From the IMG/VR virus record IMGVR_UViG_2693429524_000008: a stretch of DNA of 7,545 nt. One strand, 5' to 3'. The notes under the pieces were generated by a model. It was not told the DNA's origin. It saw nothing but the letters and a program-made list of their open reading frames with translations, and did not search any database. Each line of letters starts with the position of its first letter. The first letter of the stretch is position 1. This document shows positions 1 through 7,545 of the stretch, in pieces. The position numbers and the translations under genes are program-made. The stretch comes from a virus. Lineage: Duplodnaviria > Heunggongvirae > Uroviricota > Caudoviricetes.

Positions 1-111
1 CATACTCCTCCGGCAGAAGCAGAAAAAGCTTATTATGCTTCCATCGGAAACGATGATCTGGCAGCCTGAGTTCACAGATAAAACACTCTCCAGGAAACCC
101 GGGGCGGTTCA
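1..111 (+). mobile_element. 3' terminal fragment of an IS3-family insertion sequence (IS629/IS1203-like): transposase OrfB C-terminus (1..69) plus about 25 bp right terminal inverted repeat (87..111); element body lies outside the window to the left
   Basis: Seen: 1..111 is the exact reverse complement of 7435..7545. Frame +1 of 1..69 reads HTPPAEAEKAYYASIGNDDLAA-stop, which fits the conserved C-terminal tail of IS3-family DDE transposases. Read from the tip the end is 5'-TGAACCGCCCCGGGTTTCCTGGAGA, the TG...CA terminus typical of IS3-family inverted repeats. The IS629-like assignment is from memory, not a database hit. Confidence 0.6.
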
Positions 112-530
112 GGTTTTGGCGTGTATTCTGGAACAGGTTTCCCTTTTTTTCTGCATGCTTCTGCCCTGAGTCTCCAGTTTTCCTCATGACGCCGGTTCGT
201 CATTTTCTGCATTGCTGAATAAATTTTTGATTCAGTAATGTCTCTTAGTTGCATTCCTGCGAAATGTTGAAGCCAGAATCCGATCCGGCTTTTGTCATCG
301 TCCAGTGATTTTTTATGTGCTTTCTCTTCAAGCCACCTGACACACGCTTCCTCGAACGTTATATCAGGTATTTCACCAAGTTTGCTGACCCGCCATGCTT
401 CAGCCTTTAGCTTGTCATGGAGTTCTGTCGCCTGCCTTTTGTCCTTTGTTCCAAGAGACTGTTTAAATCTTTTACCGTTCGGCAATGTGAAACTGGCGTA
501 CCATATTTCACCTCTGCGGAAGAGTGACAT
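72..530 (-). pseudogene. int: Phage tyrosine integrase, N-terminal fragment only (integrase-derived part 112..530, about 139 codons; the last 13 codons and stop are read from IS sequence)
   Basis: ORF 72..530 (152 aa) begins [31 protein letters not shown]..., recalled as the N-terminus of DLP12/IntD-like lambdoid integrases (arm-binding and start of core-binding domain). The catalytic domain with the R/H-x-x-R/Y active-site residues is completely absent. Integrase-like sequence stops at the IS junction at 111/112. Position next to xis and orientation are lambdoid-typical. Confidence 0.75.
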
Positions 531-2968: not shown

Positions 2969-3331
2969 TTAATGACCTGCTGCGCGGAGTTTTCCGTCAG
3001 GCTCACCGGCAAGAGTCAGTAATTGTCCCTGGTCTTCCTGCAGAATAGTCAGGCGACCACCGCGATTGACATACATCGGTGTTTCGGTGGTGTCTTCTTC
3101 GGAAATTTTCCCGCGGTTAGTCGGGCGAACATATGAGAGTTTGTGTTTGATTTTCACACGGTTCTCATCAAATGGTTCGATTTCCAGGTTGAGCGAGACC
3201 TTACCTTTGGTTTTCGTGTTCATCACACCGGAAGCGACTTCACTGAGAACTGCGCCGATTTTGGTTTCAAATACGCCGCCGTCCAGCTCCCCGATAAATG
3301 CCTGCACATCAGTACTGCGTTCGCTAGCCAT
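2969..3331 (-). CDS. yfdP: YfdP-like small prophage protein, 120 aa (the longer ORF to 3517 is probably upstream read-through)
   Basis: Start placed at ATG 3329..3331 (MASERSTDVQAFIGELDGG...) because AGGAG lies 7 nt upstream; the 62 codons above it are Cys/Arg/His-rich and not protein-like. Gene order P then Q then R on the minus strand matches the yfdP-yfdQ-yfdR order recalled for E. coli K-12 CPS-53. Confidence 0.5.
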   Translation of the reverse strand: MASERSTDVQAFIGELDGGVFETKIGAVLSEVASGVMNTKTKGKVSLNLEIEPFDENRVKIKHKLSYVRPTNRGKISEEDTTETPMYVNRGGRLTILQEDQGQLLTLAGEPDGKLRAAGH

Positions 3332-3379
3332 TTTGCTGCTCCTCATCATATCGACCCTGCAAGGTCGGTTAGTTTCTCC

Positions 3380-3468
3380 ACAAAACAGAGAAGAACACCT
3401 GCGGTGGCAGCCGCCCGGATGGATTGGGTTATGAGCCCGTCGTCCGGTGATGCTCTTCTCTGTTTTGT
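3380..3468. repeat. Long-range inverted repeat: 15-bp perfect arms (3380..3394 and 3454..3468) separated by 59 nt, in the untranslated leader upstream of the yfdP-like gene
   Basis: 3381..3394 CAAAACAGAGAAGA is the exact reverse complement of 3454..3467, with one further A/T pair at 3380/3468. Confidence 0.5.
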
Positions 3469-3946
3469 AAAAAGAGCGGTACCAGCCGGAAGCAAGTGTA
3501 CAAACTGGTACCGCCAAAGCAGTGGCTGTTGTGGTGACCGGTGCTGATCTCCGGCTTGCGGTTATTTCAGACTCTCACGGGCGTTTAATTGCCCCGCCGA
3601 ACAGCTCTTTTCCGCAATAGCTGCAATGTCTTTCGCGCATCAGTCTGCGCATTCACCACAACGCTGAGAGCACTTAGCCAGTTACGGCACCACACTTTGT
3701 CGCGGTTCCATAAATGCCCTCATCGTTGCACCCTGGTCTCTTCCCAGGCGTCAAACCGAATCGCCACGCTGGTTAGGCGTCTTATCAGCATCATCATTGA
3801 CTTGCACATTCCGGCTACCTGGTTTGTTTGCTCGAGCAAGGAGTGGATTGTCCCCTTTAACGTCACCAGACCGCTAACGACGCATGTGCCATACGCCGTG
3901 TTACAACCAAATTTTGTTTTAATCTTGCCTGTGTTATGTTTCTTTT

Positions 3947-3980
3947 AGATACATTGTGTATCTCATGGATACATTGTCAA
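3947..3980 (-). promoter_or_regulatory. Candidate leftward early promoter (pL-like) with overlapping operator: minus-strand -35 TTGACA (3975..3980), 16-nt spacer, -10 CACAAT (3953..3958); perfect 17-bp palindrome AGATACA-TTG-TGTATCT (3947..3963) plus a second GATACATTG half-site copy (3968..3976)
   Basis: Consensus -35 hexamer and palindrome seen directly; the -10 is weak (lacks the first T). Position immediately downstream of the repressor terminator and upstream of the leftward gene block fits an oL/pL arrangement. Confidence 0.4.
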
Positions 3981-3983
3981 GTA

Positions 3984-4006
3984 TAAAAAAACCTGCCGAA
4001 GCAGGT
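3984..4006 (-). terminator. Rho-independent terminator for the repressor gene (minus-strand RNA: ACCUGC-UUCG-GCAGGU followed by a U-tract)
   Basis: 6-bp perfect stem (3991..3996 / 4001..4006) with a UUCG tetraloop, followed on the minus strand by a run of six to seven T (3984..3990), beginning 13 nt after the repressor stop codon (4020..4022). Confidence 0.7.
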
Positions 4007-4019
4007 TCATAAATATTGA

Positions 4020-4694
4020 TTAGGCCTTTATTGTGTATCTTCTTGGTTTTCCCGAGAAAATCACTGTACCAATTATAGAGCAATTACCGTTAATCTTAAT
4101 GTAAGGCTCAGGCCAGTTTGGGTTTAATGCTTTGAGATAACGCTGTGTTCCATCTTCTATCAATCGCTTGAAGGTGGTTTCGCCTGTATCGTGCATCAAT
4201 GCAATAACGTCGTCACCGTGGCAGGCAGGGACTTCGGGATCAACAAAAATCATGTCTCCAGGGCGGTACTCATCAATCATTGAATCACCAATCACCCGCA
4301 AGATATAAGTCATTTCGCCACAGGGTACAGGGCAGGGATACGTTTCTGCTGTGCTCAAATCAACCTCAGAATAGCCAACTTCTTTCCATGCTCCGGCCTG
4401 TACCCATGATATGACAGGGACTAACGTTATTTGTTTGTTAGTGATTGAAACATCAGGTTTTTTTGTGATGTTCGTTGTCTGGTGTTCTTGATCAAGCCAT
4501 CCGACAGGCAGGTCGAAACATTTTTCGATGTGCCGTGCCATGCTGTCACCGATATTTTTAGTAGCGCCATCCCCCATAAACCTGCTGGTCTGGGTTGGCT
4601 CGCGATCAATCATGGTGGCAAAGGATGAATTTCCGCCAACACCATCTCTCAGTTTTCTGGCGTTAGACCGCCGGATGTCATGGATTGTTTTCAT
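4020..4694 (-). CDS. CI-like prophage repressor: N-terminal HTH domain plus C-terminal S24 (LexA/UmuD-like) autopeptidase domain, 224 aa
   Basis: C-terminal half carries the S24 signature: putative Ala-Gly cleavage site (VQAGAW), Ser nucleophile in VIGDSM and Lys in TFKRL. Divergently oriented to a Cro-like gene across an operator-bearing spacer. Confidence 0.8.
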   Translation of the reverse strand: MKTIHDIRRSNARKLRDGVGGNSSFATMIDREPTQTSRFMGDGATKNIGDSMARHIEKCFDLPVGWLDQEHQTTNITKKPDVSITNKQITLVPVISWVQAGAWKEVGYSEVDLSTAETYPCPVPCGEMTYILRVIGDSMIDEYRPGDMIFVDPEVPACHGDDVIALMHDTGETTFKRLIEDGTQRYLKALNPNWPEPYIKINGNCSIIGTVIFSGKPRRYTIKA

Positions 4695-4710
4695 AACGAA
4701 ATTAAAACCT

Positions 4711-4780
4711 TTGTACCGATAAGGTACAAGTATCTTGAGGGTTCATTTCAATCATGTAATATGTATACCGTAGGTACATA
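4711..4780. promoter_or_regulatory. Immunity-region operator/promoter cluster: perfect 19-bp palindrome TTGTACC-GATAA-GGTACAA (4711..4729), imperfect palindrome TGTATACC-GTA-GGTACATA (4762..4780), and a rightward promoter -35 TTGAGG (4735..4740) / -10 TAATAT (4757..4762)
   Basis: Palindromes and hexamers read directly from the 90-bp spacer between the divergent repressor (start 4694) and cro-like (start 4785) genes; the second palindrome overlaps the -10 and predicted transcription start. Confidence 0.5.
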
Positions 4781-4784
4781 TTGT

Positions 4785-4985
4785 ATGAAAGCGTACTGGG
4801 ACTCTTTAACCAAAGAACAGCAGGGCGAGTTGGCCGGAAAAGTTGGCTCAACACCTGGCTACTTACGGCTGGTTTTCAATGGTTATAAAAAAGCCAGTTT
4901 TGTGCTGGCTAAAAAACTTGAGCAATGCACGTCAGGTGCAATTACGAAATCTGACTTAAGACCGGATATCTATCCGAAAGATTAA
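4785..4985 (+). CDS. Cro-like HTH regulator (YdaS/DUF1019-type), 66 aa
   Basis: Within ORF 4680..4985; start placed at ATG 4785 (MKAYWDSLTKEQQGELAGKVGSTPGYLRLVFNGYKKASFVLAKKLEQCTSGAITKSDLRPDIYPKD) because the upstream part of the ORF overlaps the promoter/operators. An HTH followed by the DLRPDI motif is characteristic of YdaS-type Cro proteins. Confidence 0.6.
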   Translation: MKAYWDSLTKEQQGELAGKVGSTPGYLRLVFNGYKKASFVLAKKLEQCTSGAITKSDLRPDIYPKD

Positions 4986-5016
4986 CAGAACACCTTCAAT
5001 TTTTAACCACAGAACG

Positions 5017-5580
5017 ATGAGGCTAACCGTGGGTAAGCATCACTGGAAAGTAGAAAAACAGCCTGAGTGGTACGTGAAAGCTGTCAGAAAAACTATCGCA
5101 GCGTTGCCGGGTGGTTACGCTGAAGCAGCTGACTGGCTGGATGTAACAGAGAACGCATTATTTAACCGCCTTCGTGCCTATGGCGATCAGATTTTCCCGC
5201 TGGGATGGGCAATGGTTTTACAGCGCGCGGCTGGCACTCACTACATTGCGGATGCTGTCGCACAGTCTGCTGGTGGGGTGTTCGTATCGCTTCCTGAAAT
5301 TGAGGAAGTAGAGAACGCCGATATAAACCAGCGCCTGCTGGAAGTCATTGAACAGATCGGCAGTTATTCAAAACAGATTCGTTCAGCAATTGAAGACGGT
5401 GTAGTGGAACCGAATGAGAAGACAGCAATTAACGACGAGCTGTACCTCTCAATTTCGAAGCTGCAGGAGCATGCAGCACTGGTCTACAAAATTTTTTGCA
5501 TTTCAGAAAGTAATGACGCCCGCGAGTGTGCAGCTCCGGGCGCCGTGGCGTGTCGTGACTGTGGAGAAACTAACGCATGA
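5017..5580 (+). CDS. CII-like phage regulatory protein (CP76-type), 187 aa; possible alternative GTG start at 5029 with a GAGG Shine-Dalgarno
   Basis: Position directly after cro; sequence features (WYVKAV..., [37 protein letters not shown]...) match my recollection of the enterobacterial phage CII/CP76 family. Its stop overlaps the next ATG as ATGA (5577..5580). Confidence 0.55.
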
Positions 5581-5915
5581 ACAGTTTAACAACACACTAC
5601 CGTCGCTCGCAACTGATTGCGCTTCCTGTACCGGGTGGAAAAGCGAAGGTGGAGTATTGCTATGCAGTAAATGTACCAGGTGACAGGGAAATTGTAACCC
5701 ACAGCTTTGCAGAGTGGGCTGTGGGTGATTTCAACCGGCAGAAGGAGACAGTCCTTTGCGACAAGTTAACCGCTGGTTCAAAGATCACTACGGAGTGCCC
5801 GTCAGAGTCATTCGTTGGGAGCCGGAAACACAACGGGTTATCTACCTCCGCGAAGGCTATGAGCATGAGTGCTTCAGCCCGCTCGAACAGTTTCGTCGTA
5901 AATTCAGGGAAGTAG
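5577..5915 (+). CDS. Hypothetical ORF, 112 aa; only the N-terminal half looks protein-like, and coding signal moves to another frame from about 5730 (possible frameshifted gene)
   Basis: ATG overlaps the CII-like stop (ATGA). The C-terminal 50 residues are Ser/Ala-rich and low-complexity, while an overlapping frame is clearly protein-like over 5729..5935. Confidence 0.3.
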
Positions 5916-6555: not shown

Positions 6556-7437
6556 ATGAAAAATACTGTAAAAATAAACAGTATTGATTTAATCAACGCT
6601 GATTGCCTGCATTTTATTCAGTCCCTGCCTGATGATTCCATTGACCTGATTGTTACCGATCCGCCTTACTTCAAGGTGAAACCTAACGGTTGGGACAATC
6701 AGTGGAAAGGGGACGAAGATTACCTTAAGTGGCTGGACCACTGTCTGGCCCAGTTCTGGCGGGTGTTAAAACCTGCCGGAAGCCTTTACCTGTTCTGTGG
6801 GCATCGCCTGGCATCTGATATTGAGATCATGATGCGTGAACGTTTCAACGTGCTTAACCATATCATCTGGGCGAAGCCGTCCGGACGTTGGAATGGGTGT
6901 AATAAAGAAAGTCTGCGCGCATATTTTCCTGCCACAGAGCGCGTTCTGTTTGCTGAACATTACCAGGGGCCATATCGCGGCAAAAGTGACGGCTATGCAG
7001 CAAAAGAAAGGGAACTCAAACAGCACATAATGGCACCGCTGATATCGTATTTCAGGGATGCTCGTGCCGAACTGGGTATAACGGCAAAACAAATTGCCGA
7101 AGCCACAGGTAAGAAAAATATGGTTTCCCACTGGTTTGGTGCCAGTCAGTGGCAGTTGCCGAATGAGGCTGACTATCGGAAGTTACAGGCACTGTTTTCC
7201 CGTATAGCGGCAGAGAAGTTTCAGGAACAACAACTGGAACAACCACACCACCAGCTGGTGGCATCTTATGATTCACTGAATCGCAAATATTCTGAATTGC
7301 TGGATGAGTTTAAATCTCTCCGGCGCTATTTCTCCGTATCAGTCTCCGTGCCTTATACCGATGTCTGGATGCATAAACCCGTTCAGTTCTACCCGGGTAA
7401 ACATCCGTGTGAGAAACCGGCGGATATGCTCAGGTGA
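6556..7437 (+). pseudogene. N6-adenine DNA methyltransferase (beta-class, phage Dam-like), 3'-truncated at the IS junction (methyltransferase-derived part 6556..7434)
   Basis: Catalytic motif IV, IVTDPPYF, near the N-terminus; the ORF ends ...YPGKHPCEKPADMLR-stop, six residues after the HP-x-x-KP motif that normally precedes the C-terminal AdoMet-binding motif (DPF-x-GSGTT type), which is missing. The TGA stop (7435..7437) is the first three bases of the IS terminal repeat. Confidence 0.75.
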
Positions 7438-7545
7438 ACCGCCCCGGGTTTCCTGGAGAGTGTTTTATCTGTGAACTCAGGCTGCCAGATCATCGTTTCC
7501 GATGGAAGCATAATAAGCTTTTTCTGCTTCTGCCGGAGGAGTATG
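7435..7545 (-). mobile_element. 3' terminal fragment of a second IS3-family (IS629/IS1203-like) copy in inverted orientation: right terminal inverted repeat starting TGAACC at 7435, transposase C-terminus on the minus strand (7477..7545)
   Basis: Exact reverse complement of 1..111; same reasoning as for the left-hand fragment. Confidence 0.6.

Follow-up and report, generated by a model that had tools for sequence, protein, structure and literature searches.

The window analyzed in this study, a stretch of 7.5 kb (7,545 nt), belongs to a lambdoid prophage of the e14/SfV/cdtI type and covers its immunity and early region. Positions 3300-5100 share 96-99% identity with phages Ayreon, 2H10, cdtI, SfV, SfIV, and many Stx2c phages. 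The immunity region matches 3097 of the 5426 complete E. coli genomes searched, i.e., more than half of them, K-12 included. Relatives used for the conservation test were 80 IMG/VR loci with 99-100% identical repressors, SfV, Ayreon, the K-12 e14 element, the Hafnia phage yong2 (repressor 81% identical), and the Edwardsiella phage EPP-1 (repressor 74% identical). Up to 86 related sequences were compared, 83 of them for the left operators.

An open reading frame for a cI-type repressor of 224 aa (YmfK/SfV cI) occupies 4020-4694 on the minus strand, with its stop codon at 4020-4022. The protein combines a DNA-binding domain at its N terminus with a LexA-like, self-cleaving domain at its C terminus. 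Residues 93-212 match Pfam Peptidase_S24 (E = 1.5e-26), and the N-terminal 75 residues match the phage-repressor DNA-binding domain of PDB entry 5d50, named "Repressor" (E = 4.7e-4). The motifs for self-cleavage, Ala-Gly at residues 100-101 and the serine of GDSM, are present. The repressor is identical to e14 YmfK of K-12 at 223 of 224 residues, is 99% identical to SfV cI, and aligns with 434 cI over residues 11-212 (tblastn).

To the right of the repressor lies a cro-like open reading frame of 66 aa (4785-4985, plus strand; PGAP name ymfT), followed by the CII/CP76-family gene ymfL. The Pfam matches of YmfT, to YdaS and HTH_3, were both under the family cut-offs. To the left are homologs of yfdP, yfdQ (DUF2303), and yfdR. 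The first gene of this leftward operon is the yfdP-family open reading frame at 2969-3331 (minus strand; PGAP name yfdP), which begins ~615 nt past the predicted transcription start. No gene is annotated between yfdP and ymfK among the 15 RefSeq genomes listed.

Several other features were observed in the window. Its ends (1-109 and 7437-7545) carry the same sequence in inverted orientation, the terminus of an IS1203/IS629 element of the IS3 family, and they truncate an integrase open reading frame (72-530, minus strand) and a DNA methylase open reading frame (6556-7437, plus strand). The window is therefore either a prophage piece bounded by two inverted IS copies or a contig that broke in repeats. 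The sequence TACTGTAAAAATAAACAGTA at 6564-6583, which falls among the opening codons of the methylase open reading frame (start ATG, 6556), fits the 20-nt LexA (SOS) box consensus with three mismatches; none was expected from shuffled sequences. A minus-strand hairpin at ~5512-5542 lies antisense to ymfL, the CII-like gene, at its 3′ end; in K-12, Term-seq shows a very strong 3′ end at the corresponding position, 1203751(-). This hairpin recalls the oop RNA of lambda, which is antisense to cII; a scan of 5400-5800 gave no consensus promoter. A perfect, terminator-like palindrome, AAATGCCCCCGCAGGGGCATTT, lies between yfdQ and yfdR at 2045-2066. A sub-threshold Rfam match to the sRNA STnc100 was found at 1908-2087 on the minus strand (21 bits versus a gathering score of 47).

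Predicted terminator and promoter behind the repressor gene

A t_imm-like intrinsic terminator is predicted for the repressor transcript at 3985-4008 (minus strand; stem-loop 4008 to 3989). Its stem (4007-4001 paired with 3996-3990) has a core of 7 bp, AACCUGC/GCAGGUU, plus one G-U pair; the UUCG loop (4000-3997) is closed by a C-G pair and the U-run (3991-3985) counts seven residues. The predicted folding energy is -11.9 kcal/mol (z = -4.4), and none of 200 shuffled sequences folds as well. The original prediction of a minus-strand UUCG hairpin with a U-tract behind the repressor stop holds, except that the stem is 7-8 bp long rather than 6. The element consists of a GC-rich hairpin and a direct U-run on the strand of the upstream gene, and its structure is kept despite changes of sequence. 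EPP-1 has at the same place an unrelated stem (GACCCGC-AATG-CGGGTC) followed by T8, the heteroimmune Salmonella phage ST64B has its own hairpin and T-run behind the repressor stop, and variants within the family preserve pairing (a C to T change gives G-U; an A to G change in yong2 gives U-G). A "putative rho-independent terminator" is annotated after cI at the homologous position of the SfV record (U82619.2), and both a terminator and a promoter are annotated at homologous positions in Ayreon (MF807953). Among the entries listed in the Term-seq tables for K-12 (PMC7815308), none falls at 12022xx, the homologous ymfK terminator; it is possible that ymfK is weakly expressed.

The consensus -35 hexamer that had been proposed for the minus strand was found by sequence scan at 3975-3980 (TTGACA, read 3980 to 3975), only 4 nt past the U-run of the terminator. 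A -10 hexamer, CACAAT (3953-3958, read 3958 to 3953), follows after 16 bp, within the 16-18 bp that separate sigma-70 hexamers, and the pair matches the consensus at 10 of 12 positions. This predicted promoter, pL, is on the strand of the cI-type repressor gene, immediately 3′ of that gene, and would direct transcription away from it. The geometry places the predicted start at a run of A residues, 3944-3946, which is 7-9 nt past the -10 hexamer and corresponds by coordinate mapping to about position 1202185 in K-12. The possibility that the T-run of the terminator doubles as an UP element for pL was considered and dropped.

Three sites of this quality were detected in 1.9 kb, and 3.0 were expected by chance. 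The promoter match by itself therefore proves nothing, and its support comes from conservation. The -35 hexamer TTGACA is invariant in all 83 relatives with a readable region. The -10 hexamer is CATAAT in 81 of the 83 sequences, and CACAAT in the window is a rare allele. It is a weaker allele than CATAAT, and this IS-truncated copy of the prophage may thus carry a promoter-down change at -10.

Predicted operators on both sides of the repressor gene

The 17-bp palindrome AGATACA-TTG-TGTATCT at 3947-3963 is perfect and overlaps the -10 region, as the original prediction stated. Perfect dyads with 7-nt arms and spacers of 0-12 are common in the window (14 versus 6.2 ± 3.0 in shuffled sequences), so the palindrome by itself is within chance. 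A second pattern, TGTAYC-N5-GRTACA, had five matches with up to two mismatches, all of which flank the repressor gene; none was found elsewhere in the window. The number expected was 0.71, and none of 200 shuffles reached five. This pattern was derived from the window before it was tested here, so independent support for it must come from relatives. In an unbiased scan of perfect 6-nt dyads with spacers of 0-12, the 6-5-6 TGTATC dyad ranked joint first for recurrence.

Two of the five sites lie over pL. OL2 (TGTATC-TCATG-GATACA, 3957-3973) is a perfect 6-5-6 site that fills the spacer between the -35 and -10 hexamers, with its center near -20. OL1 (TGTTTC-TTTTA-GATACA, 3937-3953) has one mismatch and is centered on the predicted start. 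Together they form a tandem direct repeat with a spacing of 20 bp. The half-site copy that had been noticed next to the palindrome, GATACA at 3968-3973, was identified as the right half of OL2. The two predicted operators over the promoter share the consensus of the right operators.

The remaining three sites are on the OR side. The site nearest the repressor gene (TGTACC-GATAA-GGTACA, 4712-4728) is perfect, and the site nearest cro (TGTATA-CCGTA-GGTACA, 4762-4778) has one mismatch. The middle site (AGTATC-TTGAG-GGTTCA, 4729-4745) has two mismatches, abuts the first site, and overlaps the likely -35 of pR; its weak form is also kept in yong2 and EPP-1. The best OR site is the one nearest the repressor; its center is 17 bp from that of the weak middle site, and the third site is 33 bp beyond the middle one. 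The layout of OR is unlike that of lambda: the spacing is irregular and two of the sites abut, so the cooperative geometry may also differ. It was also observed that the repressor ATG is ~7 nt past a TTTAAT hexamer; by analogy with lambda, the repressor maintenance transcript may be leaderless.

The palindrome spans the boundary of the two sites: one spacer base and the right half-site of OL1, then the 3 bp between the sites, then the left half-site of OL2 and one spacer base. Its arms, GATACA and TGTATC, are the OR half-site, in contrast to the suggestion that it differs from the cI/cro operators; in half-sites the dyad is related to those operators, and both arms are explained as halves of two adjacent OR-type 6-5-6 sites. 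Since the palindrome is the junction of two ordinary repressor sites, the second DNA-binding protein proposed for the leftward operon becomes unnecessary. It could still be argued that the palindrome is a single operator of such a protein, which would make the left operon independent of the cI/Cro switch: the dyad is perfect in the window, it overlaps the -10 and the start site, and 64 of 83 relatives keep its 6-bp arms without a mismatch. The palindrome in its full 7-3-7 form is perfect in 35 of the 83 sequences, carries a single mismatch in 30 and two mismatches in 18, and is hence imperfect in 48 relatives, including SfV and K-12 e14. The outer halves, to which a single operator would give no role, are conserved: 3937-3942 of OL1 and 3968-3973 of OL2 vary as little as the inner halves. 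The unbiased dyad scan found no conserved second copy of the 6-3-6 form in the window; a candidate at OR (GGTACA-TAT-TGTATG at 4773, two mismatches) was rejected as it is not kept in yong2 or EPP-1. No candidate for an extra regulator was identified. A separate operator is therefore considered very unlikely, and two OR-type sites are the preferred reading of the palindrome.

An exact 11-nt repeat, ATTGTGTATCT, was observed at 3953-3963 and at 4030-4040, the latter in the last codons of the repressor gene. A third OL site built on the second copy (AAAACC-AAGAA-GATACA) was tried and rejected, with three mismatches in one half. This copy is in conserved codons 77 bp from OL2 and is probably a coincidence of R-Y-T codons.

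Over the five sites, variable columns were found at 12 of 60 half-site positions versus 19 of 25 spacer positions (Fisher p = 2.6e-6), and much of the half-site variation is at the Y/R position. The order common to the relatives is the terminator, TTGACA, A, a 17-bp site, YAA, and a second 17-bp site, and the three OR sites are kept as well. All five sites and TTGACA-16-CATAAT are preserved in yong2, together with the terminator, and in EPP-1, where the terminator has its different stem. A pL-like leftward promoter with an operator behind a terminator, as had been predicted, corresponds to the t_imm/OL/pL layout of lambda, and this layout is kept in every relative examined. In ST64B, sites of the form TTGC-N7-GCAA are present at both OL and OR, and TGTAYC sites are absent. 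In each of these two immunity types the OL motif is the OR motif, as expected if one repressor serves both sides.

These comparisons also bear on whether the hexamers and dyads are fortuitous, functionless matches in AT-rich intergenic DNA. Both the promoter count and the abundance of perfect 7-nt dyads in the window are what such an explanation would predict. However, even phages of other genera retain the promoter hexamers, their spacing, and all the half-sites, although the neighboring spacers and flanks have diverged, and a heteroimmune phage shows the matching layout. A chance origin is accordingly scarcely credible.

The predicted leader RNA downstream of pL

Transcription from pL would produce a leader of ~615 nt, from 3946 to the start of yfdP at 3331. 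No credible open reading frame was found in this leader, none is annotated in RefSeq, and no reading frame with a Pfam match was detected in 3332-3946. The leader is strongly structured (z = -4.1). An inverted repeat and its predicted fold mark a terminator-like hairpin at 3469-3515 on the minus strand (hairpin 3515 to 3476; U-run 3475 to 3469), with a perfect stem of 10 bp, a 19-nt loop, and a UCUUUUU tail. At the corresponding position in K-12, 1201195(-), the Term-seq tables (PMC7815308) list an RNA 3′ end.

Directly after this terminator is a long conserved hairpin (3380-3468, minus strand, read 3468 to 3380) with a stem of ~25 bp. Its apex, CGGGCUCAUAACCC (3439 to 3426), shares all 14 nt with the anticodon stem-loop of the E. 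coli initiator tRNA metZ. ARAGORN calls no tRNA in the window, and the long hairpin was rejected as a tRNA gene. The composite of terminator and long hairpin recurs in ST64B, 118970_sal3, and Flotzy with different terminator stems. It is kept upstream of yfdP-type genes in heteroimmune phages that lack an N protein, and the long stem shows seven compensatory pairs. In Klebsiella and Pantoea phages, the apex core is also found in late regions, where it adjoins tRNA genes. Besides the window, the loci recorded for these observations are L087 (~1460-1597), L088 (~1180-1316), L086 (1510-1575), L089, L090, and L091. Rfam was searched with the entire window and, under relaxed thresholds, with 3340-3530; this gave chance hairpin matches and no family for the leader or the control region. 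The composite is the only part of the locus that looks unusual. As a tentative and rather doubtful suggestion, it could be a cis-acting RNA module for early-left read-through, acting by processing, by N-less antitermination, or by tRNA mimicry.

The segment between pL and the leader terminator (3540-3930) was observed to be a swappable module (compared with L002, L083, and L001). It is free of open reading frames in the window and in Ayreon, and in SfV and K-12 e14 it is replaced by the gene orf33/ymfJ with its own terminator. In the pL leader of yong2 (L084), ARAGORN detects a tRNA-like gene (Gly, anticodon CCC) at 2067-2140; it directly follows the long hairpin of that phage and precedes the yfdP-type gene.

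The structure of the leader, its lack of coding capacity, and the fact that uninduced K-12 cells have an in vivo 3′ end at the homolog of its terminator could all be accommodated by a real promoter whose main product is a ~480-nt non-coding RNA, or a short transcript expressed in lysogens, ending at 3469, and which is not the promoter of the early-left operon. Against this, two operators over the promoter imply an off state in lysogens. A gene follows the same promoter in SfV and e14 (orf33/ymfJ), and in EPP-1 a gene lies ~45 nt downstream. Furthermore, the promoter scan of 3200-3950 gave no other promoter for yfdP-yfdQ-yfdR. We consider such a non-coding or lysogenic transcript an unlikely main product and pL as the early-left promoter the better explanation.

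Proposed mode of control and comparison with known systems

Taken from the sequence, this region very probably serves as the left-hand control region in a lambdoid prophage of the e14/SfV type, arranged as t_imm-OL-pL, with the prophage's own repressor as the likeliest binder. The elements themselves, their statistics, their conservation, and the agreement of OL and OR motifs in two immunity types are seen in the sequences, whereas the start site, binding, cooperativity, and termination efficiency are inferred from lambda, 434, and P22. In a lysogen the terminator would end the repressor transcript; because it stands behind the repressor stop, constant transcription of the repressor gene should not enter the early-left genes. 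The sigma-70 promoter pL would fire leftward from about 3946. Since the OL sites are of the same kind as the three OR sites, YmfK/cI most likely binds OL. Its dimers, probably cooperatively, would sit on OL2, in the -35/-10 spacer, and on OL1, across +1, and exclude RNA polymerase; the OL centers are 20 bp apart, about two helical turns, so cooperative binding would be possible. Later in the lytic cycle, YmfT, the Cro-like protein, probably acts at these sites as well. Upon DNA damage, SOS-induced self-cleavage of the S24 domain would empty the operators and switch pL on. The freed promoter would then transcribe the structured leader, yfdP-yfdQ-yfdR, and onward towards xis and int. Counted against this reading are the leader terminator, ~430 nt past the start in a phage group for which no N homolog is reported (PMC3851460), the finding of two OL sites versus three in lambda, the irregular OR spacing, the rare and weaker -10 allele, and the lack of an entry for the ymfK terminator among those listed in the K-12 Term-seq tables.

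Much of this arrangement is already known, as the region is nearly identical to K-12 e14 and SfV, and the terminator is annotated in the SfV record and both terminator and promoter in the Ayreon record. The OL operators are unmarked in those records, yet they follow directly from the OR sites. Among the papers searched, those that mention ymfK, SfV, or the repressors of Stx phages give no operator definition for this type of immunity, and none reports binding of YmfK/SfV cI to OL or repression of pL. For the e14/SfV/cdtI/Stx2c immunity type, the present analysis provides an operator model in which TGTAYC-N5-GRTACA occurs at two OL and three OR sites. It also removes the suggested extra regulator of the left operon. 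The same immunity region is present in K-12 itself and in Shiga-toxin 2c phages, and the model could help to predict immunity groups and to design induction reporters for these prophages. The control region is conventional, and its importance beyond annotation is small.

In lambda, the t_imm terminator is followed by pL with repeated 17-bp OL dyads of the OR family, which are bound by a repressor with HTH and S24 domains; a small Cro protein is encoded on the other side. The window has the same order of elements and the same logic as lambda, 434, and P22, i.e., a terminator, pL, OR-type dyads, an S24 repressor, and a Cro-like protein. In contrast to lambda, its OL comprises two sites rather than three, both downstream of the -35 and none upstream, and its half-site is TGTAYC. 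The window has no rexAB between the repressor gene and the terminator, which is why the U-run of the terminator ends 4 nt from the -35. It also lacks an N gene and a recognizable nut site downstream of pL, features that are not essential for a pL/OL region, and has instead the long leader with a terminator and a long hairpin. The phages SfII, SfV, and SfIV are likewise without cII, cIII, and N (PMC3851460).

A close counterpart is the ymfK-ymfJ intergenic region of K-12 e14 (~1202170-1202258). Its terminator and -35 are identical to those of the window, it contains both OL sites, and e14 and the window share 98% identity across OR. The e14 promoter differs in its -10, CATAAT, and has ymfJ downstream where the window has an ORF-less stretch. 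The palindrome is imperfect in e14 because GGTACA replaces GATACA. SfV and Ayreon share 96-98% identity with the window here. In SfV, a "putative operator region" is annotated at OR, and the additional orf33 module is present between pL and the yfdP-type gene. In ST64B, the -35 is TTGACT and the repressor is of a different type; nevertheless, this phage shares with the window the succession of repressor stop, terminator, -35, two dyads, and a long leader with a terminator and conserved hairpin, followed by yfdP and yfdQ homologs.
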